DNA from: Escherichia phage Rtp
Reading direction: 5' to 3' (one strand)
Sequence record: NC_007603.1
DNA length: 46,219 bases
Part shown: positions 1,384 to 41,855 of the stretch, one piece after another
Layout: each line of letters opens with the position of its first letter
How positions within the stretch are numbered: the stretch's first letter is position 1
Notes under the pieces: generated by a model
Told to the model about the DNA's origin: nothing
The model's database searches: none
What the model saw: the letters and a program-made list of their open reading frames with translations, nothing else
Made by a program: the position numbers and the translations under genes

Positions 1384-1443
1384 AAGGGGATTCATCCTGA
1401 CTGGTATAATCCCCATATAAAAAACGAGAAAGGAAGTTAACGA

Positions 1444-1983
1444 ATGAATCAGATGTACACCATGATTAAGCATCAACTGAACACGGAAGCAATAAATAAG
1501 CCCGTATACGTGTTTGACTACGACGGCACGCTATCGGACAGCTCTCATCGACTTGACAAGCTGCCAGCAAACGACTTGCATCTCACGGAGTCATGGTCTG
1601 AGTTCAACCGATTGTCAATACGTGACGAACCTATCGAATCAACCATTCAGGTAATGAATAGCCTCTTCGACTCAGGCGCATTCATAATCATCCTAACAGG
1701 CAGGTCAGATGAGACGTGTGAGATTTCTACTCAGTGGCTTCATGATGCCGGAGCAAAATACAACGTGATGGTCATGCGCCAGGCTAGCGACAACCGAAAA
1801 GACACAGTTATTAAAGAGGAGTTTTTACGATACATTGGCTTGCATCGAATCACCGCCTCGTGTGATGATAGCCCAAATGTGGTAGAGCACCTAAGAGGCC
1901 TAGGTATTACCACGTATCAGGTATGTGACTATGGCGATAAACTACACACCGGACTCGGATCGCATGGCGTTCATCATAAGTGA
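1444..1983 (+). CDS. HAD-superfamily phosphatase (possible polynucleotide 3'-phosphatase / nucleotidase)
   Basis: N-terminal DxDGT motif (FDYDGTL) typical of HAD hydrolases; SD AAGGAAG upstream. Confidence 0.55.
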   Translation: MNQMYTMIKHQLNTEAINKPVYVFDYDGTLSDSSHRLDKLPANDLHLTESWSEFNRLSIRDEPIESTIQVMNSLFDSGAFIIILTGRSDETCEISTQWLHDAGAKYNVMVMRQASDNRKDTVIKEEFLRYIGLHRITASCDDSPNVVEHLRGLGITTYQVCDYGDKLHTGLGSHGVHHK

Positions 1984-4892: not shown

Positions 4893-4969
4893 GCCCCGCT
4901 AGCTCAATTGGATAGAGCAACGACCTTCTAAGTCGTAGGTTACTGGTTCGAATCCAGTGCGGAGCGCCA
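4893..4969 (+). tRNA. tRNA-Arg (anticodon UCU)
   Basis: Hand-folded cloverleaf: acceptor GCCCCGC/GCGGAGC (one C-A mismatch), D-arm GCTC-AATTGGATA-GAGC, anticodon arm ACGAC-CTTCTAA-GTCGT, T-arm ACTGG-TTCGAAT-CCAGT, encoded CCA. Confidence 0.7.
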
Positions 4970-5409: not shown

Positions 5410-5433
5410 AGCCCTCGCTTGAGGGCTTTTTTT
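5410..5433 (+). terminator. rho-independent terminator
   Basis: GCCCTC-GCTT-GAGGGC hairpin followed by a T7 run. Confidence 0.6.
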
Positions 5434-5443
5434 CGCCTGCATG

Positions 5444-5472
5444 TTGACAATAATATATGGGTGCGTTAGTAT
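5444..5472 (+). promoter_or_regulatory. near-consensus sigma70 promoter (TTGACA-17bp-TAGTAT)
   Basis: Hexamers read directly. Confidence 0.5.
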
Positions 5473-5513
5473 TAACTCATCGGGGCGACCCACTAACCAG
5501 AAGGAGACTCAAA

Positions 5514-5738
5514 ATTATTACATTAAAAGCAATTCACAAAGACGGTAGCGAGCAGGTTTTTGAAGTCCATAAGTTCGGATACAACGTAAAATCAAATAGG
5601 ATTGACGCGGTTGATGATGCTGGCCCATTCACAATTTGCATGGGTGAGTTGATTTCAGTCGTGTACGCAATGAACTCGAGAGGCTCAACAGTTGGTAGGT
5701 ACTTCAATACCGGTATAGACAGAGCAAAAGCAGAGTAA
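5514..5738 (+). CDS. candidate ORF with non-canonical AUU start (about 74 aa), or alternatively a non-coding transcript
   Basis: AAGGAG at 5501-5506, in-frame ATT 7 nt downstream; the ORF-track ATG 5457 lies inside the promoter with no SD; unit bounded by promoter and terminator. Confidence 0.25.
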   Translation: MITLKAIHKDGSEQVFEVHKFGYNVKSNRIDAVDDAGPFTICMGELISVVYAMNSRGSTVGRYFNTGIDRAKAE

Positions 5739-5744
5739 ACACCA

Positions 5745-5768
5745 AGCCCCTTAATTGGGGCTTTTTTA
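5745..5768 (+). terminator. rho-independent terminator
   Basis: AGCCCC-TTAATT-GGGGCT hairpin plus T6. Confidence 0.6.
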
Positions 5769-5812
5769 CGCCTGTAATATGGTATAATCTACCATCAACA
5801 AAGGAGGATTAA

Positions 5813-6387: not shown

Positions 6388-6864
6388 ATGAATTGGCATG
6401 ATATTTTTGATTATGATGGATGTAATTTATACAGAAGGGATTCTGGAAAAAAGGCTGGAACAAAAGCGGGCCCTAGAGGTTACATTCAGTGCAGAGTTGG
6501 TGGTGGACTACCTAAGGTTTATGCTCACAGGATTATATGGGAGATGCACAATGACAAGATACCTAACAGCATGGTTGTTGACCACATTAACCACATATAC
6601 GACGACAATAGAATTGAAAACCTAAGGTTAGTAACAGTTAAGGAAAATTCTAGCAACATTAAGAGATCAAAGAGAAATACAAGTGGCATACAAGGAGTTA
6701 GGAGAAGGAGTGATAACGGAAATTGGTACGCGGACTTAAGAGTTGATGGAAAGCTAAGGCAAATGCCAATGCGACATTGCTTTGAAGACGCAGCAGCCGA
6801 TAGGATATATCTTGAAGTGTACCACGGGTTTCATCCAAATCATGGAGCAATAGTAAATGAGTGA
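6388..6864 (+). CDS. HNH endonuclease with AP2 domain (homing endonuclease-like)
   Basis: HRIIWEMHNDKIPNSMVVDHINHIYDDNRIENLRLV motif; paralog of 21464..21979; sits between terS and terL. Confidence 0.8.
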   Translation: MNWHDIFDYDGCNLYRRDSGKKAGTKAGPRGYIQCRVGGGLPKVYAHRIIWEMHNDKIPNSMVVDHINHIYDDNRIENLRLVTVKENSSNIKRSKRNTSGIQGVRRRSDNGNWYADLRVDGKLRQMPMRHCFEDAAADRIYLEVYHGFHPNHGAIVNE

Positions 6865-8428
6865 CCTAATCGTATGGGATGAGCTGACTCACGCTGAGAA
6901 GATGGCTATAAAGGCCATCTCTGAGCATAGTTTCGAGGGATTCTTGCGTTGTTTCTTCCAGATAACTCAGGGTGAGAGATTTAAAATGAATTGGCATGCG
7001 AAATACCTTTGCCGCGTCATAGATGAGATTCTTGAGGGTAAGAGAAAGGACACCATCATAAACGTAGCTCCTGGGTCAGCCAAAACCGAACTGTTTAGCA
7101 TCCATTTCCCTGTTTATAGCATGATTAAGATTAAGAAGGTTAGGAATCTTAGCTTGTCGTTCTCTGACTCACTTGTTAAGCGCAACTCCAAGCGCGTCCG
7201 CGACCTGATTAAGTCAAAAGAGTTTCAGGAACTTTGGCCATGCTCCTTTGGAACATGCAGGGATGACGAGATTCAGGTTCTGGATGAGAATGGTAAAGTT
7301 AGATTTGAGTCTATATCTAAGGCAATGGCGGGACAGGTGACGGGAAGCAGGGGTGGCTACATGACCGATGATTACAGTGGTTGCATAATGCTGGATGACC
7401 CGCTAAAACCTGATGATGCGCTGAGTAATGTAAGGAGGGAGGCTGTCAACATGCTTCTCAAGAACACAATTCGCTCGCGTCGCGCTAGCTCGGTAAAAGG
7501 GAAGGAAACGCCAATAATTGCTGTGCAGCAAAGACTTCATGTTCTGGATACTAGCCACTTCATGGAGTCAGGACAAATGGGCATCAAGTTCGATGTGGTG
7601 AAAGTTCCTGCCATAGTCACGGAGGATTACGCCGACACGCTTCCTGATTGGATCAAACAACAATTTATTGATGATGTTCTTTCATCACCATTTGTAGAGC
7701 GGGATGGGGTTAAGTATTACAGCTATTTTCCAGCAAAGGAATCAATAGAAGACTTAATGGCCATGCGAGACGCTGACCCTTACACATTCCTTAGTCAGTA
7801 CGCTCAAGAACCCGTAGCGCTTGGTGGCAATCTTATTAACGTGGATTGGTTCCAGCGCCTTAGTGATACATTCAGACCTCCAGCTAAGTACGATTATAGA
7901 TTCATAACTTGCGACACGGCGATGACTACAAAGAGTTATAGCGACTTCTCTGTACTCCAGTTGTGGGGCTATAAGGACGCTAAGATTTACCTGATAGACC
8001 AGCGCAGGGGTAAGTGGGAAGCTCCGGAGTTGGAAGCTGAACTGCTGGATTTCGAGAAGAAATCAAGGTCAACCAGTCAGTCAGATGGCATCCTTAGAAA
8101 GATTATTATCGAGAAGAAAGCATCCGGCATCGGACTCATTCAGTCGGCAGGAAGGGTAATGCGAACACCCATAGAGCCATACGTACCTGATAACGACAAG
8201 CTAACCAGGGTAATGAGCGCACTGCCGCAGATTAAGGCTGGCAATGTAGTTCTTCCAGAATCAGCGCCGTGGTTAAGCGGATTGCTTACTGAGATTGCAG
8301 CTTTTACGGCAGATGACTCGCATAAGCACGATGACCAAATTGACTGTCTAACAATGGCAATCAACCTGGTACTTAACATTGCCGATGATCCTAAGGCTCG
8401 ACTAATGCGCATAGCTGGAATGAAATAG
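6857..8428 (+). CDS. terminase large subunit
   Basis: 523 aa; N-terminal ATPase region and C-terminal nuclease-like region (ITCDTAMTT...DFSVLQLWG), typical terminase architecture. Confidence 0.85.
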   Translation: MSDLIVWDELTHAEKMAIKAISEHSFEGFLRCFFQITQGERFKMNWHAKYLCRVIDEILEGKRKDTIINVAPGSAKTELFSIHFPVYSMIKIKKVRNLSLSFSDSLVKRNSKRVRDLIKSKEFQELWPCSFGTCRDDEIQVLDENGKVRFESISKAMAGQVTGSRGGYMTDDYSGCIMLDDPLKPDDALSNVRREAVNMLLKNTIRSRRASSVKGKETPIIAVQQRLHVLDTSHFMESGQMGIKFDVVKVPAIVTEDYADTLPDWIKQQFIDDVLSSPFVERDGVKYYSYFPAKESIEDLMAMRDADPYTFLSQYAQEPVALGGNLINVDWFQRLSDTFRPPAKYDYRFITCDTAMTTKSYSDFSVLQLWGYKDAKIYLIDQRRGKWEAPELEAELLDFEKKSRSTSQSDGILRKIIIEKKASGIGLIQSAGRVMRTPIEPYVPDNDKLTRVMSALPQIKAGNVVLPESAPWLSGLLTEIAAFTADDSHKHDDQIDCLTMAINLVLNIADDPKARLMRIAGMK

Positions 8429-8468
8429 CACAAATTGCTAAACAATGAGGCCACGGATGGCGTATATT
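8426..8468 (+). promoter_or_regulatory. palindrome-promoter cassette
   Basis: TAGCACAAATTGCTAAA shares TAG with the terL stop; 22-bp spacer; TATATT 8463-8468. Confidence 0.5.
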
Positions 8469-8499
8469 TACCTTACACAAACGAGAGGAGAAAAGACAA

Positions 8500-8856
8500 A
8501 TGGCACGCACTTCAAAGGCTGTATATCTTGGCAACAACGATGATGTGTATTATGGTTTCACCGTAGGTAAGGAATATGAGATTGTATCGTATACTGGTGA
8601 TGACCTCATTCTGATCGCTGATGATGATGGCGAATGCCGTGGCATCAATAACGGGGCATTCCACAAGTTCGAACTCTCAGAAACAGAATGCGCAGCCGCA
8701 GCCACTGGCAATAATAAAAGACCAGATCTCAGATATTACATAAACGGACATGAGGTTGATTTACTTGAGTTTGACAAAGTTCGCTCTCACACCCTTGAGC
8801 TTGCCCACCTAGGCGTAAAATGCGACACAATAAAGTTCGAGGTAAAATTCGAGTAA
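8500..8856 (+). CDS. hypothetical protein (118 aa), moron-like insert between terL and portal
   Basis: Own cassette promoter upstream, own terminator downstream; SD GAGAGGAG. Confidence 0.6.
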   Translation: MARTSKAVYLGNNDDVYYGFTVGKEYEIVSYTGDDLILIADDDGECRGINNGAFHKFELSETECAAAATGNNKRPDLRYYINGHEVDLLEFDKVRSHTLELAHLGVKCDTIKFEVKFE

Positions 8857-8877
8857 CCACAAAAGCTATGATAAACT

Positions 8878-8899
8878 AGCCCCTACATGGGGCTTTTTT
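8878..8899 (+). terminator. rho-independent terminator
   Basis: AGCCCC-TACAT-GGGGCT hairpin plus T6, directly followed by ATTGGAGAAA SD. Confidence 0.6.
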
Positions 8900-8912
8900 A
8901 TTGGAGAAAAAC

Positions 8913-10181
8913 ATGGTCAAGACAGACAGCTACGCCAATATCTTTCTCGGCGGTAGTGATGGTAGTGAGATTTACGGGAGCTTGCAGAACCAGGCTCCTA
9001 CAATTCTGGCTTCGCTATATGCGGACAATGCTCTGGTGCGTCGAATCATCGACACAATCCCGGAGACAGCATTGGCGGCAGGATTCCATATTGACGGCAT
9101 TGATGACGAACCTGCATTCTGGTCGAGATGGGATGATTTGGAGATGACGCAGAATATCAACGATGCCTGGTCATGGGCCAGATTGTTCGGTGGGGCTGCT
9201 ATTGTCGCTATCGTCAAGGACAATAGAGCATTAACAAGCCCCGTCAGAGAAGGTGCCGAGCTTGAAACCGTTCGCGTTTACGACCGCACGCAAGTAAAAG
9301 TACAAACTCGCGAGGAGAATCCACGCAACGCGCGCTTTGGTGAGCCACTAACCTATCGCATCACAACTAATGAGAGCGATATGTTCTATGATGTTCATTA
9401 CAGCCGCATTCATATCATCGATGGCGAGCGAATCCCTAACGTAATGCGTCGGCAAAATGACGGCTGGGGCCGTAGCGTTCTATCCAGTGACATTCTTGAC
9501 TCAATCAAGGATTACACCAACTGTGAACGACTTGCTACGCAATTACTGAAACGTAAGCAGCAAGCGGTATGGAAAGCTAAAGGTCTGGCTGAACTGTGTG
9601 ATGATAGCGAAGGATTTGGTGCAGCAAGATTACGCCTGGCCCAGGTTGACAACAATAGCGGTGTTGGTCAGGCGATTGGCATTGACGCAGAATCTGAAGA
9701 GTACAGCGTTCTAAACTCTGATATTGGCGGGATTGATGCGTTTCTGGATAAGAAGTTTGACAGAATAGTCGCCCTGAGCGGTATTCATGAAATCATCCTG
9801 AAGAACAAGAACGTTGGTGGCGTGTCATCAAGCCAGAATACGGCGCTAGAGACATTCCACAAGCTGGTTGACCGCAAGCGCAATGCTGAGTTGCTCCCTA
9901 TTCTTGAATTCTTGATCCCGTTCATCGTGAACGCAGAAGAGTGGTCAGTTGAGTTTAATCCGTTGGCTCAGGAATCAAGTAAGGATAAGGCCGAGATTCT
10001 TGAGAAGAACGTAAACAGCATTGCGGCACTAATTGCAGCAGGCGCTATGGATATCGACGAGGCTCGTGATACACTACGAACTATAGCCCCAGAGGTTAAG
10101 ATCAATGATGGTTCAGTAGAGACAGAGGTGACAATTAGTGAAACCAGTAACGACCCGTTGGAAGTACCCACAGACGATTGA
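8913..10181 (+). CDS. portal protein
   Basis: About 422 aa, immediately after the terminase block; start trimmed from TTG 8901 to ATG 8913 (GGAG 6 nt upstream). Confidence 0.75.
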   Translation: MVKTDSYANIFLGGSDGSEIYGSLQNQAPTILASLYADNALVRRIIDTIPETALAAGFHIDGIDDEPAFWSRWDDLEMTQNINDAWSWARLFGGAAIVAIVKDNRALTSPVREGAELETVRVYDRTQVKVQTREENPRNARFGEPLTYRITTNESDMFYDVHYSRIHIIDGERIPNVMRRQNDGWGRSVLSSDILDSIKDYTNCERLATQLLKRKQQAVWKAKGLAELCDDSEGFGAARLRLAQVDNNSGVGQAIGIDAESEEYSVLNSDIGGIDAFLDKKFDRIVALSGIHEIILKNKNVGGVSSSQNTALETFHKLVDRKRNAELLPILEFLIPFIVNAEEWSVEFNPLAQESSKDKAEILEKNVNSIAALIAAGAMDIDEARDTLRTIAPEVKINDGSVETEVTISETSNDPLEVPTDD

Positions 10182-10866
10182 GAGCCAGGTTAACCGCAAT
10201 CTCAGTATTGCGGTAACTGAGTTAATTTCGGCAATGAGGGAGTCTGCAACAAGGCTTAAAATTGATACTGCAGAGGAGCTTGAGCAAGAGGATGGATACC
10301 TTGACGGGATAATTGCGGCGCTGGTGGCGTCATTTATATCAACCATCCCAGCTATAGGGGCAGCAATATACAGATACAATAGTTCGCAATTTCTTGTTCT
10401 TGCAATCAAGACTGGAGGGAGGTCTAATCCTAGCGTTCTAGACCTTGAAGTTAACGGAATAAATGGCGATGAGCCGTGGTATAATGATGACCTCAAGAAG
10501 TGGATTTACACCACGGATAAGTCAGCCAGAAAACTGCTAAACAACATCAAGGATGATTTCTTACAGACGACTGCAACAATACAGAATGGTGACTACGTTA
10601 AGCTATCTGACAGGTACAAAATCTACAGGAAGCGAACGGCAAACATTGCTTCTGGGATTGTTTCAAGCCTAAACTCGACGCTTATGAGGCGCAGGCTTGA
10701 GGATGCTGGTGTTAGCCGTTATATCTGGCATGGCATGCTAGATGAGAGGGAGCGCCAATCACACATAGCAAGAGAAGGCCTTAGCTTTAAACTTGGTGGG
10801 GCAGATATATTTCCGGGCCAAGAGTATGGCTGTCGTTGCTGGTCAGTTCCAGATTGGGAATCATAA
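10138..10866 (+). CDS. head morphogenesis protein (Mu F / SPP1 gp7-like minor head protein)
   Basis: Position after portal; C-terminal HIAREGL...GCRCWSVP motif; GTG start with SD AGAGGTGA; overlaps the portal 3' end. Confidence 0.55.
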   Translation: MKPVTTRWKYPQTIESQVNRNLSIAVTELISAMRESATRLKIDTAEELEQEDGYLDGIIAALVASFISTIPAIGAAIYRYNSSQFLVLAIKTGGRSNPSVLDLEVNGINGDEPWYNDDLKKWIYTTDKSARKLLNNIKDDFLQTTATIQNGDYVKLSDRYKIYRKRTANIASGIVSSLNSTLMRRRLEDAGVSRYIWHGMLDERERQSHIAREGLSFKLGGADIFPGQEYGCRCWSVPDWES

Positions 10867-13523: not shown

Positions 13524-13546
13524 CGCCCTCTTCGGAGGGCTTTTTT
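13524..13546 (+). terminator. rho-independent terminator
   Basis: GCCCTC-TTCG-GAGGGC hairpin plus T6. Confidence 0.65.
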
Positions 13547-13609
13547 ACGTCTGTACCAAATGGATTTGTTGAGTTATAATCACTCAATCAGATAACAAAG
13601 GAGACAAAA

Positions 13610-13855: not shown

Positions 13856-14006
13856 ATCACATGGACGCTTATGCGTCCTTTATTGTATGGAGCTAATATG
13901 TTGTTATTTTTAGCAGTTATGTCACTACTAATATCCATTCCGCTCGCATTTGTTGGTCTAATTCTTCTTATTGGATTCATTAAAGGTGGGGCTTCCTGGA
14001 GGTAAC

Positions 14007-17099: not shown

Positions 17100-17419
17100 A
17101 ACGAGCGGTGTATCTACAGTACCAGTCAGACCCAACCGATGCTGAACTGGAAGCTATTGGGATGCGCCGCTCTGATTACGAAGATGAAGAGCCTGAAGTT
17201 TTACACTTCGACGACAACATGATGAAGGCGTGGGACATTTATTGTTCAATGGCTACACAGTGGAGAGTCGGAGCTAACGGAGCTACAGGCCTAGATTACA
17301 GCGTGCTAAACTTCCTCTTTAGAGTGTATAATGTTTCTGAAGAAGAATTGGTGCTCAGCGATTTACGCATCCTTGAAGCTAAGGCTCTAGAGATGATGGA
17401 TAACCTGAGAAAAAAATAA
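17096..17419 (+). CDS. tail assembly chaperone -1 frameshift extension (GT-like product, in-frame continuation after slip at 17090-17096)
   Basis: -1 frame open from 17096 to 17419; ORF track 17108..17419 has only a GTG start and a weak SD, consistent with expression by frameshift. Confidence 0.5.
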   Translation, partial: LKRAVYLQYQSDPTDAELEAIGMRRSDYEDEEPEVLHFDDNMMKAWDIYCSMATQWRVGANGATGLDYSVLNFLFRVYNVSEEELVLSDLRILEAKALEMMDNLRKK

Positions 17420-17440
17420 CCCGCTTCGGCGGGTTTTCTA
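17419..17440 (+). terminator. rho-independent terminator-like hairpin
   Basis: ACCCGC-TTCG-GCGGGT followed by TTTTCTATT. Confidence 0.45.
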
Positions 17441-17454
17441 TTATGGAGGCTTAG

Positions 17455-20220
17455 ATGGCAACAAATGAATTAGCCGGAATCACACTAGCCGTAGACGTCT
17501 CGCAGGTAGACAGGGGAACGCAATCCCTACAAAAGTTTAGGCAGGCAAACCAGCAAGCCGCTTCCGGCATTAGTGAATTCGTCAATGCTGAGCAGGTTGC
17601 TAAAATCCAGGCGAGGGATACCGCTCGCGCACTGGCTGAACAGCAAGCATCTTTAGCAAGGCTGCAAACAGCTATTGATCCAACTGCGGCAAAGTTTCGC
17701 AAGCTACAAGAGGCTGCGGTAGGTCTTGATAAGGCATTTGCTGCTGGCGTAGTTCCTGATGAGGAGTTTTTCCGCTTAGGCGAAGCTCTAGAAACCCAAA
17801 ACGCAAGACTTGCACGCTCCAGAGCAGCCCTTACCGAAGAAGGTAGAGCGGCAGCGCAGGCAGCAAAGGATAAGGCAAGGGCAAAGGCTGAGGCAGATAG
17901 ATTCATCGCATCACTGCAACGCCAGGCTCAAGCTGCGACATTGACGCGCGAGGAGTACTTAAAGTTACAGGCAGCACAACTTGGTGTATCCGCAGAGGCG
18001 ACACCATTAATTAACCAGATTAGCACTGCAACCCAGAGAACTGTTGAAAATCTTGGCAGGCAAGCAGCGGCATTTCAGAAATCAGGATTAAGCGCCGGGC
18101 AATACAAGAATGCCATATCTCAACTACCGGCGCAGATTACTGATATTGGCACGTCGCTTGCTGGCGGCATTCCGATTTGGCTTATTGCAATTCAGCAGGG
18201 TGGTCAGATTAAGGATAGCTTTGGCGGCATTGCTAATACTGCGAGATTCCTCCTTTCTTATCTCAACCCGCTCACAGTAGCCGCTGGTGTTCTTGGTGCT
18301 GGCTTTGCTTACGCTGCGGTAAGCATTTACCAGAGCGAATCTGCAATAAAGGCAGCAAGAAAAGCGGTTGAGGAAACGCTTGGAGTCACGGATGAGGCGG
18401 CTAGGCAGCTAAGCATTAGCATCGCCAAGATTTCTGAGGCCTCGGGAAAGACAGCTGAAGATATCGCGAAGTCATTCGTATCAACCCGTGACGGAGCGCA
18501 AGAAGCAATTCTGAAGCTGATTGATGTTGGTGTTAGTTACGATGAAGCTAGGGAGCTTGTGGAGCGTTACAAGAATGCATCAAACTTTACCCAGGTTAAC
18601 GCGCAAATTGAGCAGCACAGACTTGAGGCTGCAAAGATTCAGGATAGCTGGTTCGAGAATGCTATGGCCGTTAGCTACTACAATGATGTTGCAGTGCCGG
18701 GGCTGGTTAACTCGCCATTAACCAATGTATCAGCAAGAAACAACGCAGCAATTCAGGAGTTTGCTATCCTTCTTGAGAAGGATGTAAACAAGGCTCTAAT
18801 TGATGGAAACCGATACGTTGCTGAACAAGTTGATTTGATTGGCAAGGAATATCTGGCACTTGATCGCGTTGCTGGAGCGGAGAAGTCACTTGCAGACGCA
18901 AGAAAACAGGCCGCAGCAATTGCAAGGAGCGGTAATGCGGAAGCTATTGCTCAAGCTAACAGAGTAATTCAGTTAAGGCAGCGTGAACTTGACGAGGCAA
19001 TTAAGGCAGAGAAAGAAAGAAATAAACCAGCAAAAACGAAAGCACCAAAGGAAGCTAGAGACCTTACCATTAATTATGAGTCGGGAGTCCTCGCTCTGGA
19101 GGCTCAGTTAAGGTTGCTTCAGAATGTAGGAAGTCAGACAAAGGCCATCAGCACTGAGCGGAGAAAGCTACTTGAGGAGGAAGCTAAGTTTGCAATCCTT
19201 GAGGAGCGCCAGGCGGCTGGTACAATCGGCAGAGAGCAGGCCAGACTTCTTCTTGAGAAAGACAAAGTTCTCGAGTTGGCCAGGCAGAAGGCTGAGCTAG
19301 GTGATCAGATTGTTTTGCAGGAACGCGCAAATAAGCTAGCTGAAGACAATAGGAAGAAGACTCTTCAGATTAACAATGAGGCAAATAACATTGATTTGGG
19401 TGCTGGTTTGTCATCTCGAGAGCAGCAGAGGGCTAAAGAGATTCAGGCTCTTCAATCCAATCAGGTTAATGCTGGTGGCTCTCTCGATGACGTCGATTTC
19501 CAGCAATTACTGGAAGCGAGAAAGCAGTACTACAAGGATGAGGATGCTCTTAGGGCAGACTGGAAAGCTGGTGTGACTTCAACTCTCGCTGACTTGACTG
19601 AGAAGTACACTGACTACAATCAGATTGCTAATGATTTAACTGTTGCGGCATTCGACGGGATAACAGAGCAAATTACAAACCTTGTAACCACTGGTGAGAC
19701 GAACTTTAGGGAGTTTACAGCAAGCATCCTGAAAATGATTGCGAAGATTGCAACTCAGTTACTTTTGGTTAAGGCCATCGAATCAACATTGACTAGCTTT
19801 GGTGGTGGGGGAGGTAACGCGTTTGGCTCATTTGCATCTGCCATAGGTTTTGCTGGTGGCGGTTACACTGGCGATGGTGGCAAGTATCAGCCCGCTGGTA
19901 CAGTTCATAAAGGTGAGTTTGTATTCACTAAGGAAGCGACAAGCCGAATCGGTGTTAAGAACCTTTACGCACTAATGAAAGGTTACGCAAGCGGCGGTGT
20001 TGTTGGCGGCCCTTCCGGTTACGCAAATGGCGGCTTAGTTTCTGGTGGCACTAATGTTGATGTTAGTGGCATCACTGTTAACGTGAACTCAGGGGTTGGT
20101 AGCGACCCAGAGCAAGCCAAAGCGTTGCAGAACGGCGTCAAGGCAATCGTAGCGGAAGAGATTGCTCAGTCATTCCAGCAGGGTGGCAAGGCCTATCAGT
20201 ACCTGCGCGGATTCAATTAA
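17455..20220 (+). CDS. tail tape measure protein
   Basis: 921 aa, Ala/Gln/Glu-rich coiled-coil composition, Gly-rich C-terminal region; after the chaperone pair. Confidence 0.9.
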   Translation: MATNELAGITLAVDVSQVDRGTQSLQKFRQANQQAASGISEFVNAEQVAKIQARDTARALAEQQASLARLQTAIDPTAAKFRKLQEAAVGLDKAFAAGVVPDEEFFRLGEALETQNARLARSRAALTEEGRAAAQAAKDKARAKAEADRFIASLQRQAQAATLTREEYLKLQAAQLGVSAEATPLINQISTATQRTVENLGRQAAAFQKSGLSAGQYKNAISQLPAQITDIGTSLAGGIPIWLIAIQQGGQIKDSFGGIANTARFLLSYLNPLTVAAGVLGAGFAYAAVSIYQSESAIKAARKAVEETLGVTDEAARQLSISIAKISEASGKTAEDIAKSFVSTRDGAQEAILKLIDVGVSYDEARELVERYKNASNFTQVNAQIEQHRLEAAKIQDSWFENAMAVSYYNDVAVPGLVNSPLTNVSARNNAAIQEFAILLEKDVNKALIDGNRYVAEQVDLIGKEYLALDRVAGAEKSLADARKQAAAIARSGNAEAIAQANRVIQLRQRELDEAIKAEKERNKPAKTKAPKEARDLTINYESGVLALEAQLRLLQNVGSQTKAISTERRKLLEEEAKFAILEERQAAGTIGREQARLLLEKDKVLELARQKAELGDQIVLQERANKLAEDNRKKTLQINNEANNIDLGAGLSSREQQRAKEIQALQSNQVNAGGSLDDVDFQQLLEARKQYYKDEDALRADWKAGVTSTLADLTEKYTDYNQIANDLTVAAFDGITEQITNLVTTGETNFREFTASILKMIAKIATQLLLVKAIESTLTSFGGGGGNAFGSFASAIGFAGGGYTGDGGKYQPAGTVHKGEFVFTKEATSRIGVKNLYALMKGYASGGVVGGPSGYANGGLVSGGTNVDVSGITVNVNSGVGSDPEQAKALQNGVKAIVAEEIAQSFQQGGKAYQYLRGFN

Positions 20221-20250: not shown

Positions 20251-20601
20251 ATGGCTATCGATACATTTAATTACTGCACTCAAGTCCAAAATGGAGGCGG
20301 CTCATTTTCTAACACGAACAACGTGCGAATTGTTAGCTTCGGAAATGGTTATTCACAACGCGGAACGGGTGGATATCGTAGTAATACCAGAAGCTACCAG
20401 ATGACTTACACAAATAAGGACTGGCGCGAGGTTATGGAATTTTGTTTCAACCACATCATCACCCCATTCTTCTGGACCACACCGCAAGGTGATACATCAA
20501 TGTTTGTGATTCAGCAGGATAGCATTAGTGTAACTCCGCTCAGCAAGGAAGTTCAGACTGTAAACATGCAATTCGTAGAAGTATTTAGCTCAATGCGTTA
20601 A
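20251..20601 (+). CDS. minor tail protein (lambda M-like)
   Basis: 116 aa directly after the tape measure; synteny M-L-K-I-J. Confidence 0.65.
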   Translation: MAIDTFNYCTQVQNGGGSFSNTNNVRIVSFGNGYSQRGTGGYRSNTRSYQMTYTNKDWREVMEFCFNHIITPFFWTTPQGDTSMFVIQQDSISVTPLSKEVQTVNMQFVEVFSSMR

Positions 20602-20605
20602 ACTA

Positions 20606-20627
20606 AGCCCCATTAGGGGCTTTTTTT
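20606..20627 (+). terminator. rho-independent terminator
   Basis: AGCCCC-ATTA-GGGGCT plus T7, followed by ATTGGAGAAA SD (same arrangement as at 8878). Confidence 0.6.
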
Positions 20628-20640
20628 ATTGGAGAAATAT

Positions 20641-21396
20641 ATGTTAAGTCCAAAGTTTGAAAATCAGTTGCAAAGTCTTTTCCCTGGCGAGATTGTGACT
20701 CTAATCCAGGTAGACGGGACGGCGTTTGGCTCTCTCGTTTACAACTTCCACAATGAAAACATTTCATATACACCAGAAGAAATAATGCTGGCCCAAATGA
20801 ATGGCGAGCCACTACCAGAGAAGATAATCACATTTCGCGGAGAAGAGTATGGCCCAAGACCTTTCGGTATCTCTGGTATAAATATGACTTCTGACGGCAA
20901 GGCTAACAAGGTCACGTTGACAGTATCAAACGTAGACCAGAGAATTAGCGCACTTATCCGCACCTACAATGGATTGGTTAAAGCAAAGGTTACTATCTGG
21001 ATTACTACGCGCGATAACATCAATGAGGATGGAAGCATTGCCGATGGTGACTATCGCCGATTCGTTTACTTCATTGAGAGACCAAAGCAAGTTGATTACA
21101 AGACGGCATCATTTGAGCTTAGCAGTCCGATGGATATGGATGGTATCTACATTCCTGCGCGACTTGTTCAGTCTGTTTGCTATTGGGCGTCAAGGGGGTG
21201 GTATCGCAGCGGTAATGGCTGCGACTACGCTGGTAATCGTTATTTTGACAAGGATGACAATCCAGTTAATGACCCCTCCTTAGACTTCTGCGCCGGAACT
21301 GTTAATAGCTGCAAGATTAGATTCGGCGAGAATAACCAGCTTTCATTTGGTGGATGCGCGGCTGCAAGCCTGCAAGCTAAAGCTAATCAATCATAG
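20641..21396 (+). CDS. minor tail protein (lambda L-like)
   Basis: C-terminal cysteine cluster (C..C..C..C) as in gpL Fe-S proteins; ORF track 20629 trimmed to ATG 20641 with GGAG SD. Confidence 0.75.
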   Translation: MLSPKFENQLQSLFPGEIVTLIQVDGTAFGSLVYNFHNENISYTPEEIMLAQMNGEPLPEKIITFRGEEYGPRPFGISGINMTSDGKANKVTLTVSNVDQRISALIRTYNGLVKAKVTIWITTRDNINEDGSIADGDYRRFVYFIERPKQVDYKTASFELSSPMDMDGIYIPARLVQSVCYWASRGWYRSGNGCDYAGNRYFDKDDNPVNDPSLDFCAGTVNSCKIRFGENNQLSFGGCAAASLQAKANQS

Positions 21397-21463: not shown

Positions 21464-21979
21464 ATGAATTGGCATGATTACTTTAGATATGAAGACGGCA
21501 AGTTATACTGGATTAGCTTTCCAAACCCAGAGCAGACAAGGAGCGTAAAGATAGGAGATGTTGCTGGATACAAACACCCTGACAACAAGGGTTACATTAG
21601 GGTTCAAGTTATGGGTAAGATGCTAAGGGTCCATCGCGTGATATGGGAAATGCATAACGGAAAAATACCAGAAGGCATGGAGATTGACCACATAAATGGG
21701 ATTAGATCAGACAACAGAATTGAAAACCTAAGAATTGTTAATGGTCTTGAGAACATGAAAAATAAGGGGATTTATAAAAACAACAAAACTGGATTTGTTG
21801 GGGTTGAGAAAATTAAAGCAAACGGAAAGTACAGGGCAAGCATAAGAGTTAATAAAAAACTTATTTTTCTAGGTGAGTATATTTCAATTGAAGATGCCAT
21901 TGACGCTAGAAAGAAAGCTGAATGTGAATACCTTTTCCATAAGAATCACGGAGTTAGAAATGCTTACACCAAAAGTTAA
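21464..21979 (+). CDS. HNH endonuclease with AP2 domain (homing endonuclease-like), paralog of 6388..6864
   Basis: HRVIWEMHNGKIPEGMEIDHINGIRSDNRIENLRIV motif; inserted between L-like and K-like tail genes. Confidence 0.8.
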   Translation: MNWHDYFRYEDGKLYWISFPNPEQTRSVKIGDVAGYKHPDNKGYIRVQVMGKMLRVHRVIWEMHNGKIPEGMEIDHINGIRSDNRIENLRIVNGLENMKNKGIYKNNKTGFVGVEKIKANGKYRASIRVNKKLIFLGEYISIEDAIDARKKAECEYLFHKNHGVRNAYTKS

Positions 21980-22718: not shown

Positions 22719-23271
22719 TATTAAGTTAGGATTATCACTAGGCCGCAAGTTTGGAAAGATTCACCAGATGGCAGTGAATAGCGTTCCCGAGGCTATGCGA
22801 GCACTATGCTCACAGATTCCAGCATTCAAAGAATTCATGAACAGTCATGTTGGTCAAAATACAAGGTACGCCGTGTTCGTTGATGGCAAAAATGTGAACG
22901 AGCATCGAATCTCTGATTTTAGTGCCGTTCAGGAGATACGCATCTTACCAATCCCTCAAGGCCGCAAGTCTGGAGGGTTGTTTCAGACTATCCTGGGAGC
23001 AGCACTAATCGTTGTTGGTGTTGTTTTTCAGCAATACTACCTTGTTGGGGCTGGCATTTCACTTGCTGCTGGCGGCGTTGCTCAGTTGCTTTCACCTCAA
23101 GCTACCGGGTTGAAAGACCAAAGTAACCAGACAAGTAACAGGGCATCTTACGCATTCGGTTCGGCTGTGAACACTGTAGCTGCTGGTTATCCAGTATGCC
23201 TTCCATATGGATATCGAACGGTTGGAGGTTCGGTATTTAGTGCCGGCAGCTACGCTGAAGACAATGCTTAA
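22699..23271 (+). CDS. tail assembly protein (lambda I-like)
   Basis: 190 aa between K-like and J-like genes; hydrophobic central segment. Confidence 0.65.
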   Translation: MTQKLIDIKLGLSLGRKFGKIHQMAVNSVPEAMRALCSQIPAFKEFMNSHVGQNTRYAVFVDGKNVNEHRISDFSAVQEIRILPIPQGRKSGGLFQTILGAALIVVGVVFQQYYLVGAGISLAAGGVAQLLSPQATGLKDQSNQTSNRASYAFGSAVNTVAAGYPVCLPYGYRTVGGSVFSAGSYAEDNA

Positions 23272-23312: not shown

Positions 23313-26300
23313 ATGGCACAAATGATCAAAACAAACATGAGGCTTTGTGATATGGCTGAAGAGATTAAGATTTATGGTGCCAAGGGTGGTAGCCAAAAGC
23401 AGCATCAACCAGTGGAGCAGGAAGATAACCTAATTTCACTTAACAAGGTTAAGGTTCTTTTGGCGGTTGCTGACGGTGAGGTGGATCCTAACTTCTCATT
23501 GAAGGATTTATACCTTGCTGACGTTCCGGTACAAAATCAGGATGGTAGCTACAACTATGAAGGTGTTCGCGCTGAGTTCCGTGCTGGCACGCAGTATCAG
23601 GACTATATCGCCGGTCTTGACGGTGCTAACTCAGAGATTCAGGCATCCAGAGAAATCAAGAACGATACCCCGTACATCATTGCAGTTAACAATACTCAGC
23701 TTTCAGCAATTCGAGTTAAGCTATTCTGGCCTCGACTGGTTAAGCAAGAAAGCAATGGAGACCTGAACGGAACAACCTGCGAGTATGCAATTGACCTTTC
23801 TGTTAATGGTGGCGCTTACCAGGAATACACTCGCGGAGTTGCTAACGGAAAGACCACTACAGGTTACGACCGAAGCATTCGCGTAAACCTTCCGGCAGAA
23901 TTTGATAGCGCGCTTGTTCGCATCCGTAAGATTACGCCGGATTCAACAAGTAGCACCCTGGTTAACGGTATGCAGATTACAACCTATCAGGAAGTAATTG
24001 ACGCTAAATTCCGCTATCCGCTTACGGCTCTGGTTTACGTTGAGTTTGGTTCTGACTTGTTCCCTAACGGCATCCCAACAATCTCAATCAAGAAGAGATG
24101 GAAGTTGATTCAGGTTCCTACAAACTATAACCCTGAAACCAGAACTTATAGCGGCACATGGAATGGCCTATTCAAGATGGCATGGTCAAACAACCCAGCA
24201 TGGGTTCTTTATGACTTAGTAACAAACCGCCGTTACGGACTTGACCAGCGAGAACTAGGTGTAGAGATTGATAAGTGGGGCCTGTACGAAGCTGCACAAT
24301 TCTGTGACCAGATGGTTCCAGATGGTAAGGGTGGCTTAGAGCCGCGTTACCTTTGCGATATGGTTGTACAGAACAAGGTTGAGGCTTACACGCTAATTCG
24401 TGATATCTGTTCAATCTTTCGCGGCCTGACTTTCTATGACGGCGAAAAGATTGGCATCGTGGTTGATAAGCCTCGCAACCCATCTTACATCTTCACCAAT
24501 GATAACGTTGTAAACGGATTGTTCAGTCGCACATTTGCCAGCGATAAAAGTCTTTACACCACGGCAAACGTTCAGTTTGATGATGTAGAGAACAACTATC
24601 AGCAGGATGTTGAGCCAGTATTTGAGCTTGAGGCTACTCGCAGGTTCGGGTTTAATCCAGTCGACCTTACGGCAATTGGCTGCACTCGCAGAAGTGAAGC
24701 AAACAGACGTGGCAGATGGCTCCTAAAAACCAACCTGAGAAGCGAAACTATCAGCTTCACTACCGGGCTGGAAGGCATGATTCCGATGATTGGCGAGGTA
24801 ATTGCGGTCAATGACGCAGCATGGTCTAGCAACTATCAGTTGAACCTTTCCGGTCGTATTGAATCAGTTCAGGGATTGCAGGTTTTTACACCGTTTAAAG
24901 TTGACGCCGCGCCTGGTGACAGAGTTCTTCTGAATAAGCCTGACGGAAGTCCGGAGGCGAGAACGATCGCAAGCGTTTCTGAAGATGGAAGAACTATAAA
25001 CCTTAACACTGCTTTCAGTTTTGTAGCTCAACCTGATACTGTTTTTGCAATCGATAAAGATAATCTGGCCCTTCAGCAATATGTTGTGACCGGGATTCAA
25101 AAAGCAGATTCTGACAGTTCGGATTCATTTCAGTATACGATTACCGCAGTAGAGTATGACCCGAACAAGTATGACGAGATTGACTACGGCGTTAATATTG
25201 TTGACCGTCCAACTTCAGTCGTAGAGCCTGATAGATTGTCGCCACCTGAGAATTTAACAGTGTCAAGCTACAGCAAGGTTGTTCAAGGATTATCAGTTGA
25301 GACGATGGTTATCGGGTGGGATAAAGCGCCATACGCTAAAACCTACAATGTTCAGTGGAGAAAAGAGAATGGCAACTGGATTAACGTACCAAGAACAGCT
25401 AGCACAGAGGTTGATATCGAAGGTATTTACGCAGGAATTTATGACGTTAGGGTTCGCAGCGTATCAGATACTGAAAACGTGTCTGCCTGGTCTGGTATTG
25501 TAACTGTATCGCTAACTGGCAAGATTGGTCGCCCATCGGCACCTACGGTTATCACGGCGTCAACTGATGAAGTATTTGGTATCCGTGTTAAATGGGGATT
25601 CCCTGAAGGCTCTGGTGATACTGCTTACACTGAGCTTCAGCAGGTTCCAGATAATGGTGATGGTACTTACAATCCTGATAATGCAAGTTTGCTTACGTTG
25701 CTTCCTTATCCTGCCTACGAATACTGGCATACGCCAATTCAGCCAGGTAAGGTGATTTGGTATCGCGCAAGATTGATTGACAGAATCGGAAATACCTCTG
25801 ATTGGTCTAATTTCGCAAGAGGCATGAGTACTGACGACGCCAACATTATCAATGATTTCATCAAGGTTGATATTGAAGGTTCAGAAGGATTCAAATACCT
25901 CGAGCAGAATGCGATTCAAAAGAATCAGGACATTCAGAATCAAGCTGAGGCAATTATCGAGAACGCACTGGCTAATGATGGCGATGTTCGCAGAATGACA
26001 AAGGAGAACGGCAAGCGTAAGGCTGAATATGTTCAGGCTGTGAATCTCATAGCCGATGAAACTCAGGCGCGCGTAGAGGCTCTAACGGCCCTTAAGGCGC
26101 AGATAGATGATGAAGTTGTAGCATCGATTACAGAAGTTCAGACTGCATTAGCCACAGAGACAGAGGCAAGGACTACCGCAGACACGACTCTATCAGCAAG
26201 ACTTGGTGAAAATGAGGCGGCTTTAAACCAGAAGCTGGACGCATTCTCTAATGCCACATCGACTGGTGTGCAGTACGGAATTAGTCTTGGCCTGAAATAC

Positions 26301-26726: not shown

Positions 26727-26750
26727 AAAAGCCCCGAAAGGGGCTTTATC
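26727..26750. terminator. bidirectional rho-independent terminator
   Basis: AGCCCC-GAAA-GGGGCT hairpin with T-rich runs on both sides, between convergent genes. Confidence 0.6.
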
Positions 26751-28000: not shown

Positions 28001-28087
28001 TCGTATACACGTAACCGATGTAACTCGATGTATACAATCTCATCCGCGGAAAATGATATACGCGCTGTTACGCTAATTTACGCATTG

Positions 28088-28170
28088 GTTACATTAAAAT
28101 ATCTATATATATCAACCTTTTACTCTTATTATTATTATTATATATATTACTGTGTATATCATGTAACTAC
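28088..28170. repeat. about 80-bp AT-rich repeat, copy B
   Basis: TTACATTAAAATATCTATATATATCAACC...TTATTATTATTATATATATTACTGTGTATATCATGTA; pairs with 215-296. Confidence 0.7.
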
Positions 28171-30394: not shown

Positions 30395-30826
<432 letters not shown>

Positions 30827-30829
30827 AGA

Positions 30830-30855
30830 TAAGGCCCCTTTCGGGGCCTTTTTTA
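30830..30855 (+). terminator. rho-independent terminator
   Basis: AGGCCCC-TTTC-GGGGCCT plus T6. Confidence 0.65.
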
Positions 30856-41839: not shown

Positions 41840-41855
41840 TGGAGGCTATATTTTT
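41825..41855. terminator. bidirectional rho-independent terminator
   Basis: A6-GCCTCC-TAAT-GGAGGC-TATATTTTT between convergent genes. Confidence 0.6.

Follow-up and report, generated by a model that had tools for sequence, protein, structure and literature searches.

The genome of Escherichia phage Rtp, a T1-like coliphage and Rtp-like member of the Drexlerviridae, contains two near-identical stretches of ~45 bases, one before the portal gene (site 1) and one before the tail gene L (site 2), which probably represent conserved co-directional intrinsic terminators of the rightward structural operon, each directly abutting the ribosome-binding site of the downstream gene (Table 1). They are ordinary conserved terminator hairpins, already annotated in relatives, rather than a new kind of element, and our analysis suggests that they most likely act as leaky terminators tuned by the proximity of the ribosome to the upstream stop codon. 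The duplicated hairpin–T-run–SD–ATG junction described in the initial annotation is real and was read directly from the 46,219-nt stretch of DNA that was analysed (the window). Common to both sites is the layout TAAACT, a hairpin of 6–7 bp (GCCCC/GGGGC), six to seven T, ATTGGAGAAA, three nucleotides and ATG; the likeness thus reaches 6–7 nt further 5′ than originally delimited (TAAACT at 8872–8877 and 20599–20604). The loops (TACAT at site 1 vs ATTA at site 2), the length of the T-run (6 vs 7) and the 3 nt preceding the ATG differ. All genes flanking the two sites are on the + strand. A mechanically called ORF (8887–9147) with its start within the site 1 loop was treated as spurious.

Table 1. 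Features at and around the two junctions, in order of position in the window
Feature	Position	Strand	Remarks
Third AGCCCC/GGGGCT hairpin with T6	5745..5767	+	pattern AGCCCC..GGGGCTTTTTT; precedes small terminase gene
Dyad-promoter-like cassette	8426..8489	+	TAGCACAAATTGCTAA, 21 nt, TATATT, leader with SD; between TerL stop codon (8426–8428) and orf118
orf118	8500..8856	+	variable gene in TerL–portal slot; site 1 is its downstream terminator
TG-A-TAAACT	8869..8877	+	extended -10-like hexamer, equally A-rich 5′ hairpin flank
Site 1	8878–8915	+	AGCCCCTACATGGGGCTTTTTTATTGGAGAAAAACATG; read directly
Site 1 terminator hairpin	8878..8894	+	AGCCCC-TACAT-GGGGCT; listed by terminator scan
Site 1 U-tract and ATT	8894..8902	+	T6 at 8894–8899; tail score 4.29
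Site 1 SD, spacer and portal start codon	8903..8915	+	GGAG 8903–8906, 6-nt A-rich spacer, start codon 8913–8915
Portal protein gene	8913..10181	+	ORF opened by the site 1 ATG; PF06381, E 9e-70, match from this start
Hairpin–U-tract–SD junction	13863..13900	+	GGACGC-TTAT-GCGTCC, TTTATTGTAT, GGAG, CTAAT, ATG
Hairpin–U-tract–SD junction	17418..17457	+	AACCCGC-TTCG-GCGGGTT, TTCTATTAT, GGAGG, CTTAG, ATG; before tape-measure gene
M-like minor tail protein gene	20251..20601	+	PF05939
TAAACT 5′ flank of site 2	20599..20604	+	no TG two bases upstream
Site 2 terminator hairpin	20605..20622	+	AAGCCCC-ATTA-GGGGCTT; listed by terminator scan; starts 3 nt past stop codon
Site 2	20606–20643	+	AGCCCCATTAGGGGCTTTTTTTATTGGAGAAATATATG; read directly
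Site 2 U-tract and ATT	20621..20630	+	T7 at 20621–20627
Site 2 SD, spacer and L start codon	20631..20643	+	GGAG 20631–20634, 6-nt spacer, start codon 20641–20643
Tail tip protein L gene	20641..21396	+	ORF opened by the site 2 ATG; PF05100, E 6e-46

Since the sub-elements are each short and simple in composition, one might think of a chance resemblance between two unrelated, functionless intergenic sequences. However, the pattern AGCCCC-N3-6-GGGGCTTTTTT occurs three times in the window and in none of 100 shuffles, and the 14-mer TTTTATTGGAGAAA is present exactly twice (0.75 matches expected even with two mismatches allowed). Moreover, compensatory changes accompany the conservation of both junctions across subfamilies. 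Conservation and covariation refute the chance reading, which retains next to no probability.

Each site displays a canonical intrinsic-terminator motif, in agreement with the initial annotation: a G+C-rich stem-loop (stem 6 bp and loop 5 nt long at site 1, 7 bp and 4 nt at site 2, each stem with 5 G-C pairs) with an uninterrupted tract of 6–7 U directly 3′ of it, in an intergenic position co-directional with the flanking genes. Hairpin free energies are -11.3/-11.4 kcal/mol (site 1) and -11.7/-11.8 kcal/mol (site 2), and the d'Aubenton-Carafa d values +25 and +24. MFE and centroid folds of both sites comprise only the terminator, with the SD unpaired in the MFE fold; at site 1, RNAfold adds a lower stem in which GAUAAA pairs with UUUAUU. 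No alternative antiterminator structure was found at the sites, and an Rfam scan matched no family at either of them (one tRNA was the only match above threshold anywhere), so that they do not classify as a regulated attenuator, riboswitch or antitermination element.

The fusion of the terminator to an SD is likewise borne out, GGAG complementary to the anti-SD standing 6 nt before the ATG codons that open portal and L; counted from the shared decamer, the distance is 3 nt at both sites instead of the 4–6 nt first reported. However, this SD is not strong, as had been claimed, but moderate and mid-rank, the 4-nt GGAG core (-6.4 kcal/mol vs the anti-SD) ranking 19–20 among 49 gene starts of the window. 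Efficient re-initiation also has to be abandoned: the upstream stop codons lie 56 nt (site 1) and 39 nt (site 2) before the ATG codons, which argues for independent initiation and leads us to reject translational coupling. Read-through, by contrast, is logically needed at site 2, where only 18 nt from stem to start codon leave no room for a promoter.

Conservation of the junction in relatives is strong at both sites and includes compensatory stem changes. Of 53 distinct loci of relatives, down to 50 % portal identity, 50 retain the pre-portal cassette, with at least eight different stem sequences, every one of them still complementary, while T-run, ATT and GGAG are almost invariant. Across 29 distinct alleles, the outer five stem pairs are 100 % paired (145 cells) in an alignment with artificial flanks as anchors at the stem base, with the register set per sequence on best pairing and hence biased towards pairing. 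Two-sided changes affect all five outer pairs (43 cells vs 12 in shuffles), the covariation score amounts to 0.852 vs 0.217 for shuffled sequences (0 of 500 shuffles as high), and pairing collapses to 25–54 % in slid registers. MAFFT combined with RNAalifold on 42 cassette alleles yielded no consensus structure, since stems of differing sequence and length fall out of register. The stem of site 2 covaries to AGACCC/GGGTCT and GGGCCC/GGGCCC in Rogunavirinae; counting against the terminator reading, a natural site 2 allele (L018) with GTGG in place of GGGG has one pair broken.

A role of the sites in RNA processing and stability would be in line with hairpin and AU-rich segment being the most conserved parts. 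RNase E prefers AU-rich single-stranded segments adjacent to stem-loops, and the architecture of the sites, a stable hairpin with AU-rich single-stranded RNA behind it, fits this preference. Cleavage of the polycistronic RNA in the single-stranded UUUUUUAUU would leave the upstream transcript with a protective 3′ hairpin and let the downstream one start near the SD, the abundance of the neighbouring cistrons then being set by decay instead of termination. The pre-portal junction of Webervirus retains the hairpin without T-run, so that a hairpin alone can persist. However, a long uninterrupted U-tract abutting the stem is a specific signature of termination and not required by RNase E; we regard such processing as unlikely, and it is compatible with termination rather than exclusive of it.

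Terminators at these positions have precedents in public records. The GenBank entries of T1 (NC_005833; 10545–10573 and 22793–22816) and Guelphvirus EC3a (KY398841; 7660–7697 and 18712–18725) show rho-independent terminators at the two homologous junctions; as in Rtp, they occupy the terminase/portal and tail M/L junctions on the same strand and consist of a hairpin with T-run. The pre-portal site of T1 also shares TTTTTATTGGAGGAAACATG with Rtp, whereas the T1 stems differ (AGGGCTGTC../..GACGGCCCT and CCCGC../..GCGGG), and at its M/L junction ~40 nt with a promoter-like TAGAAT separate T-run and SD, which are fused in Rtp.

Conservation of the TAAACT/TATAAT hexamer beside the stem appears stricter than a terminator requires, which counts against a terminator-only reading. 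All 32 distinct site 1 alleles have a hexamer T-A-n-A-(A/C)-T at 0–4 nt 5′ of the stem. Lower-stem pairing between 5′ flank and U-tract was considered as the reason but not adopted, since it holds in the Rtp group and many T1-like alleles and fails in others such as L098 and L125 (judged by eye); its loss in several relatives argues for selection on the hexamer sequence itself. It is possible, if rather doubtful, that the hexamer (TGATAAACT, 8869–8877; TATAAT in T1-like relatives) serves as the -10 box of a sigma-70 promoter. In such a composite, transcripts from upstream would stop at the hairpin, while new ones starting ~7 nt past the box, inside the hairpin (~8884–8885), would miss the 5′ arm and so pass the terminator, with the U-rich leader and the SD retained. 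The hexamer persists despite covarying stems and differing upstream genes, its variants (TAAACT, TACAAT, TACACT, TATAAT, TAAAAT) retain the critical -10 positions 1, 2 and 6, an extended -10 TG is present at site 1, and a fresh promoter for the head genes would suit stoichiometry. On the other hand, no -35 match is present (TCGAGT at 17 nt scores 3/6), the promoter scan listed neither site, and the recognisable promoter family of Rtp (a dyad with a -10 box 21–22 nt downstream) is absent from both. At site 2, TG is missing and TAA is no more than the M stop codon (20599–20601), which forms the first half of TAAACT there; in relatives L012 and L019, whose preceding ORF has its stop codon elsewhere, the hexamer is kept. 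Moreover, AT-rich, stop-codon-rich DNA readily gives TAnnnT hexamers.

The known counterparts of such composites are the PeSL (promoter-early stem-loop) cassettes of T4-like phages, which join promoter, a stem-loop overlapping or beside the -10 box, SD and ATG. Like these, the Rtp sites are small intergenic composites that contain a terminator-type stem-loop and close with the SD and ATG of the next gene; both types recur within the genome and are found at indel boundaries between related phages. However, PeSLs are ~100 bp long, their sigma-70 promoter is strong, with both -35 and -10 boxes and AT-rich DNA upstream, and they occur in large numbers in hyperplastic regions that hold non-essential ORFans (Arbiol et al. 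2010, PMC2839356; Comeau et al. 2014, PMC4122927). The Rtp sites, in contrast, have only a -10-like hexamer within ~45 nt, occur in 2–3 copies per genome and precede essential structural genes, the dyad-promoter repeat of Rtp being the closer PeSL analogue.

In case of the favoured leaky, translation-dependent terminators, RNA polymerase arriving from orf118 (site 1) or M (site 2) would form the 6–7 bp G+C hairpin followed by 6–7 U, and part of the transcripts would end there. Termination would be incomplete and dependent on translation of the upstream gene, judging from the distance dependence of terminator tR2, which in E. coli is almost fully repressed a few bp past the stop codon and reaches ~0.9 efficiency at >30 bp from it (Li et al. 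2016, PMC4824070). As with tR2 and the intercistronic leaky terminators or attenuators by which operons set expression ratios, the intrinsic terminator stands few nt past a stop codon in Rtp, so that by the tR2 precedent the ribosome terminating there should influence how efficiently it works; tR2 was measured in an engineered reporter, whereas the Rtp sites are known from sequence. At site 2, where only 3 nt separate stem and M stop codon, a ribosome at the stop codon would cover the 5′ arm. The corresponding gap at site 1 is 21 nt behind orf118, compared to ~14–15 nt in T1 and L085, both of which lack orf118. Eight or nine of the ten tabulated hairpins in the rightward operon start ≤7 nt past the upstream stop codon, with site 1 among the exceptions. 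In read-through RNA, the hairpin would keep the region folded while U-tract and AUU provide an unstructured AU-rich leader 5′ of GGAG, and portal and L would be translated by independent initiation from their moderate SD. A pre-portal terminator would, however, lower transcription of portal relative to terminase and orf118, for which there is no obvious stoichiometric need. Since a literature search found no transcript maps or transcript ends for Rtp or any Drexlerviridae relative, we infer termination, its efficiency and read-through at both sites; from the SU57 paper and that on an O157 T1-like phage, numbers of predicted promoters and terminators are all that is available.

At least nine terminator-like hairpins lie in one 21-kb rightward operon, which raises the question of how the distal genes are transcribed. 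Phage-encoded antitermination overriding the terminators, a regulated read-through like that by lambda N/Q or HK022 put RNA, would be one answer, yet it is very unlikely here: the records of T1, EC3a and SU57 annotate no antiterminator, the sites offer neither an Rfam match nor an alternative structure, and promoter-like cassettes (at 6317, 8426, 16304 and 21394) as well as hairpins 3–7 nt past stop codons represent simpler routes.

The duplication, initially singled out as a special event, belongs to a broad family of hairpin–U-tract–SD junctions, with four members in the Rtp window (sites 1 and 2 and the junctions at 13863..13900 and 17418..17457; Table 1). The third AGCCCC/GGGGCT hairpin (5745–5767) is not directly followed by an SD: a promoter-like sequence (TGGTATAAT; ACGCCTGTAATATGGTATAAT) comes next, and the small terminase gene has the stronger SD AAGGAGG. 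T1 has a further copy after its capsid gene (TTTTTTTATTGGAGAAAT), additional ones in SU57 and EC3a contain different hairpins, and unrelated IMG/VR viral contigs show the same flanks around unrelated G+C hairpins; in T1, SU57 and EC3a, the family extends to non-homologous junctions. Sites 1 and 2 are its most similar pair. Shared design seems to explain most of their likeness, the near-identity being attributable mainly to sub-elements near the family consensus (TAA-ACT, G+C hairpin, T5-8, ATT, GGAG(A/G)AA, ATG), and occasional ectopic exchange between cassettes may add to it.

Such exchange touches on the suggestion of a recombination linker shared between modules, according to which the ~45-nt unit would be a homology patch for module insertion, loss or exchange, with copies at different loci exchanging sequence. 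The suggestion stands in so far as gene insertions in relatives always abut the cassette on its 5′ side and a 39-nt allele match exists; it is weakened in that dyad-promoter cassettes are the clearest marks of mosaicism, and overall we consider this role improbable. In relatives, the orf118 slot between TerL and portal holds the gene (in some cases divergent), other ORFs or nothing, and the difference always ends at the 9-mer carrying the hexamer; megablast homology of many phages to the window begins at 8828 or 8869. Between M and the cassette, relatives L012, L019 and L017 have an insert of a dyad-promoter and an ORF of 64–74 aa, its junction lying at TAAA. The site 1 allele of L087 equals the site 2 allele of SU57 over 39 nt (TAAACTAAGCCCCTATATGGGGCTTTTTTATTGGAGAAA), SU57 has a third cassette with the same flanks and another hairpin, and T1 has its own identical hairpin pair (22793 and 24972). 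Homology-block ends lie near dyad/hairpin cassettes in 19 of 42 cases with EC3a (4.3 expected) and 18 of 52 with SU57 (5.3 expected), under a null model that takes no account of breakpoints being generally more common in intergenic DNA. However, the patch comprises just ~45 nt, and a crossover joining sites 1 and 2 of the same genome would remove 11.7 kb of essential genes. Stems evolve independently in Rogunavirinae (GCCCCT/AGGGGC vs AGACCC/GGGTCT), which argues against steady concerted evolution. An insertion edge at a conserved regulatory element is expected anyway, since insertions destroying the element are selected against, and the same design in unrelated phages indicates that convergence suffices.

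A family of ~20 dyad-promoter cassettes marks mosaic boundaries in Rtp; a literature search with the dyad motif as a word found nothing relevant. Rtp also encodes a Cro-like regulator (34808–35281, minus strand). The copy at 8426–8489, whose -10-like TATATT (8463–8468) also appears in the promoter scan, lies beside the end (8492) of the homology block shared with EC3a and SU57. With this promoter-like cassette and the site 1 terminator, orf118 (no Pfam match) resembles lambdoid morons, i.e., extra genes with their own promoter and terminator, and is likewise present or absent among relatives. In contrast to a moron, its terminator was not brought by the insert, as it is present at the TerL–portal junction in phages without the insert.

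Taken as described, the two sites matter little, homologous terminators being already in public annotation. They illustrate neatly how little space (~40 nt) a compact lytic phage uses for a terminator and the following ribosome-binding site, and offer a conserved, covariation-supported set of terminator/RBS parts for E. coli. Also of use is the prediction that most terminators of the operon, 3–7 nt past stop codons, are conditional on translation, which would explain how a 21-kb operon with at least nine terminators is expressed. We tentatively propose, without considering it the likelier case, that Drexlerviridae own a portable PeSL-like cassette system that provides preferred sites of gene insertion, loss and exchange: (i) ~20 dyad-promoter units per genome (TAGCAC-N-AATTGCTAA, 21–22 nt, and a -10 box often inside an inverted repeat) may be combined with (ii) terminator-SD units that, possibly with a -10 box, may stop and then restart transcription. 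If so, small genes and homing endonucleases would move at these cassettes and copies at different loci would exchange sequence, making the regulatory cassettes landmarks of mosaicism in a phage family common in collections and therapy screens.

Two similar stretches, in which a hairpin, a T-run, a Shine-Dalgarno (SD) sequence and ATG follow one another, were confirmed by direct sequence reading at 8878-8915 (site 1) and 20606-20643 (site 2); at both sites the ATG follows the shared decamer after 3 nt, and not after 4-6 nt as in the initial annotation. The ATG of site 1 opens the portal gene (PF06381) and is preceded by a 118-aa ORF without Pfam match (orf118), while that of site 2 opens tail gene L (PF05100), with an M-like gene (PF05939) directly upstream. 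The hairpin pattern occurs 3 times in the window and in 0 of 100 shuffles, and the 14-mer TTTTATTGGAGAAA is present in exactly 2 copies. Two features were absent from the initial annotation: (i) an extension of the likeness in 5' direction into TAAACT (8872-8877 at site 1, 20599-20604 at site 2), and (ii) a third AGCCCC/GGGGCT hairpin (5745-5767), which precedes the small terminase gene and is followed by the promoter-like TGGTATAAT. The closest records to the window are those of Rtpvirus and other Braunvirinae (Drexlerviridae), with IME253 and ZL19 at 95 %.

Coordinates of the two terminator-SD junctions and of related cassettes and dyad units
Feature	Position	Strand	Remark
Site 1 hairpin AGCCCC-TACAT-GGGGCT	8878 onward	+	T-run ends 8899
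Site 1 decamer ATTGGAGAAA	8900-8909	+	then AAC, ATG (8913)
Site 2 hairpin AGCCCC-ATTA-GGGGCT	20606 onward	+	T-run ends 20627
Site 2 decamer ATTGGAGAAA	20628-20637	+	then TAT, ATG (20641)
Hairpin/(A)CGyCTGyA/-10-like cassettes, window	5410-5440, 5745-5775, 13525-13555		
Hairpin/(A)CGyCTGyA/-10-like cassettes, T1 (L136)	8322-8375, 24972-25010		
Dyad units, plus strand	1368, 2360, 3078, 3460, 4028, 6317, 8426, 16304	+	
Dyad units, plus strand (continued)	21394, 29629, 33763, 35295, 37796, 38479, 40396	+	
Dyad units, minus strand	46159, 45918, 44965, 43849, 28000	-	
Dyad motif 8 nt from TATAAT	about 1420-1490		L109, L115, L121 and similar T1-like pre-portal loci

Sites 1 and 2 are most likely intrinsic terminators inside the rightward operon, as predicted from sequence. 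Their hairpins have a dG of -11.3 (site 1) and -11.7 kcal/mol (site 2), are directly followed by 6-7 U and reach d'Aubenton-Carafa d values of +25 and +24, respectively. In 50-nt folds, the hairpin is the sole structure, lengthened by a weak A/U lower stem, and the SD is unpaired. The SD had been considered strong, but with its GGAG core, 6-nt spacer and -6.4 kcal/mol against the anti-SD it proved to be moderate (rank 19-20 of 49 gene starts). An Rfam scan matched no family at site 1 or site 2. In the T1 record, eleven rho-independent terminators are annotated in the rightward structural operon, including those at the homologous terminase/portal (10545-10573) and M/L (22793-22816) junctions, and the EC3a record carries ARNold terminators at both homologous junctions. 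The element type is already known, and orthologues of both sites are already annotated in relatives.

Relatives comprised an IMG/VR sample of 56 portal loci and 74 loci from a tail-L query, with T1, two Webervirus genomes, EC3a, SU57, IME253, AugustePiccard and phiEB49 added. The conservation on which the initial annotation had made its proposal depend is evident before the portal gene, where hairpin, T-run and SD are kept in 50 of 53 distinct loci at portal identities as low as 50 %. The pre-portal stems comprise at least eight different sequences, each perfectly complementary (AGCCCC, GCCCCT, AAGGCTGG(A), AGGGCTGGA, ..TCCGGCC, AATGGGCCA, AGGGCTGTC and GGGCTGA); among the site-2 stems, one pair is broken in the natural allele L018. 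In an alignment anchored at the stem base, with the register picked per sequence, which favours pairing, 100 % of 145 cells in the outer five pairs were paired vs 66 % in shuffles. Two-sided changes occurred at every one of these pairs, double-change cells numbered 43 vs 12 in shuffles, and the covariation score was 0.852 vs 0.217, a value reached in 0 of 500 shuffles; in slid registers, pairing dropped to 25-54 %. The T-run, the ATT after it and GGAG are nearly invariant. At the M/L junction, the hairpin was found in all subfamilies sampled, and its direct T-run-SD fusion only in Braunvirinae and Rogunavirinae, whose stems covary from AGCCCC/GGGGCT via AGACCC/GGGTCT to GGGCCC/GGGCCC; in T1 and Webervirus, ~40 nt with a promoter-like box separate T-run and SD.

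All 32 distinct site-1 alleles carry the hexamer T-A-n-A-(A/C)-T 0-4 nt 5' of the stem, reading TAAACT, TACAAT or TACACT in Rtp-like and TATAAT, TACAAT or TAAAAT in T1-like phages. Its retention irrespective of the upstream gene, together with the extended -10 form at site 1 of the window (TG-A-TAAACT), would agree with a candidate promoter whose transcripts begin inside the hairpin and escape termination, the stop-and-restart logic then being the same as in the promoter-early stem-loop (PeSL) cassettes of T4-like phages (PMC2839356, PMC4122927). Such a promoter is considered unlikely, however, given that a -35 box is absent, that TG is missing at site 2, where TAA is the M stop codon, and that the hexamer could instead be an A-rich partner pairing with the U-tract.

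Four hairpin-U-tract-SD junctions are present in the window (8878, 13863, 17418 and 20605), hairpin-U-tract-promoter-like junctions at 5410, 5745 and 13525 have GCTTTTTT(A)CGyCTG in common, and a GCCCC/GGGGC core recurs in 5 of the 13 terminator-like hairpins listed for the window. In T1, TTTTTATTGGAGGAAACATG precedes the portal gene and TTTTTTTATTGGAGAAAT follows the capsid gene, with unrelated hairpins. A pair of identical hairpins (CCCGCCTTGCGCGGGTTTTTTT) is also found in T1 itself, at two separate junctions of tail genes (22793-22816 and 24972-24994); thus, within-genome terminator identity recurs in Drexlerviridae. SU57 harbours a third cassette (TTAAACTA-hairpin-TTTTTTATTGGAGA), and EC3a one of the same design before an HNH gene. 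Scanning IMG/VR with the pattern TAAACT-N14-26-TTTTTATTGGAGA recovered Drexlerviridae sites and about twenty unrelated contigs, the latter with a 7-10 bp G+C hairpin in the gap, then ATG. Since the same flanks enclose unrelated hairpins in unrelated contigs, the hairpin-U-tract-SD design is a general solution, and convergence suffices for most of the likeness between sites 1 and 2.

A second cassette type consists of a terminator hairpin, T-run, (A)CGyCTGyA and a -10-like box. Two of these flank an extra 93-aa ORF (5457-5738) in the window; with just one cassette at this place in EC3a and SU57, the ORF appears to have been inserted between repeated regulatory units. Directly after hairpin 13863, a 35-codon ORF (13898-14005) with its own GGAG SD encodes a very hydrophobic peptide (MLLFLAVMSLLISIPLAFVGLILLIGFIKGGASWR); EC3a is devoid of this segment, its next gene directly following the terminator. 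Hairpins between convergent genes (26728-26747, 30831-30850 and 41830-41847) are terminator-like on both strands, two of the three having a GCCCC/GGGGC-type core.

The window and T1 each contain ~20 copies of an oriented intergenic dyad unit, composed of TAGCAC-N-AATTGCTAA, 21-22 nt, a -10-like box (TATAGT, TATAAT, TATATT or TATGAT; often within an inverted repeat, e.g., GGGGTA..TACCCC), leader, SD and ATG. These units, located among others upstream of orf118 (8426), HNH endonuclease genes (6317, 21394) and the gene following that of the major tail protein (16304), look like the phage's own candidate promoter class, which is probably factor-dependent. They resemble the T4 PeSLs more than the terminator-SD sites do. 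The literature searched yielded no description of the unit, which may still be known. In about 60 % of T1-like phages, a dyad motif precedes the TATAAT adjoining the pre-portal hairpin by only 8 nt; the usual spacing of 21-22 nt would put the -10 in the loop of this hairpin (GACAAT or the like). Dyad units are often found at mosaic block ends: against a uniform, generous null, 19 of 42 ends of homology blocks shared with EC3a (4.3 expected) and 18 of 52 of those shared with SU57 (5.3 expected) are near dyad units or hairpins.

The HNH endonuclease genes (6388-6864 and 21464-21979), each preceded by a dyad unit, are paralogous (PF13392; ~72-75 % DNA identity over the 5' parts) and inserted one between the terminase genes and one after tail gene L, neither being present at the corresponding positions of EC3a and SU57. 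A 161-nt direct repeat (76 % identity; 132-292 and 28005-28165, 27.9 kb apart) has one copy near the left end and one in the divergent region upstream of the recombination genes. A CAG/CAA-rich stretch (30725-30802) encodes the glutamine-rich C-terminal tail of a 143-aa protein (30395-30826), whose homologue in EC3a and SU57 is annotated as single-stranded DNA-binding protein. One tRNA gene is present (4893-4966; Rfam RF00005, 65 bits); in relatives, the corresponding position is annotated as tRNA-Arg(tct).

A recombination linker shared between modules, as initially proposed for the junctions, is supported in part. The TerL-portal slot is either empty or occupied by divergent forms of orf118, a 174-aa ORF, two further ORFs or a homing endonuclease, all variants terminating at TGATAAACT, and megablast homology of many relatives begins at window 8828 or 8869. 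Among the Rogunavirinae, three have a dyad-promoter and a 64-74 aa ORF between gene M and the cassette, joining at TAAA. The site-1 allele of L087 is identical to the site-2 allele of SU57 across 39 nt. These alleles and insertions are compatible with sporadic exchange at or between cassettes. However, insertions at cassette edges are equally expected if those damaging an essential regulatory element were simply lost, and the stems of sites 1 and 2 diverge independently in Rogunavirinae. Overall, the original observation of paired terminator-SD junctions holds, and its interpretation is supported in part.

As to the terminators themselves, only 18 nt separate stem and start codon at site 2, so that gene L would be transcribed only by read-through and termination there would have to be partial. 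Nine of the ten tabulated hairpins of the rightward operon begin ≤7 nt from the upstream stop codon; this gap is 3 nt at site 2, 21 nt at site 1 (one of two exceptions) and ~14-15 nt before the portal gene of T1 and L085, both without orf118. For terminator tR2 in an E. coli reporter, repression is nearly complete when the stop codon lies only a few bp upstream, since its hairpin is then masked by the terminating ribosome, and an efficiency of ~0.9 is attained only >30 bp past the stop codon (PMC4824070). The literature searched contained no transcript map for a Drexlerviridae phage. By analogy to tR2, the phage terminators may be conditional on translation: translated transcripts would pass them and uncoupled ones would stop there, and in the read-through RNA the U-tract would act as an unstructured, AU-rich leader ahead of the following SD.
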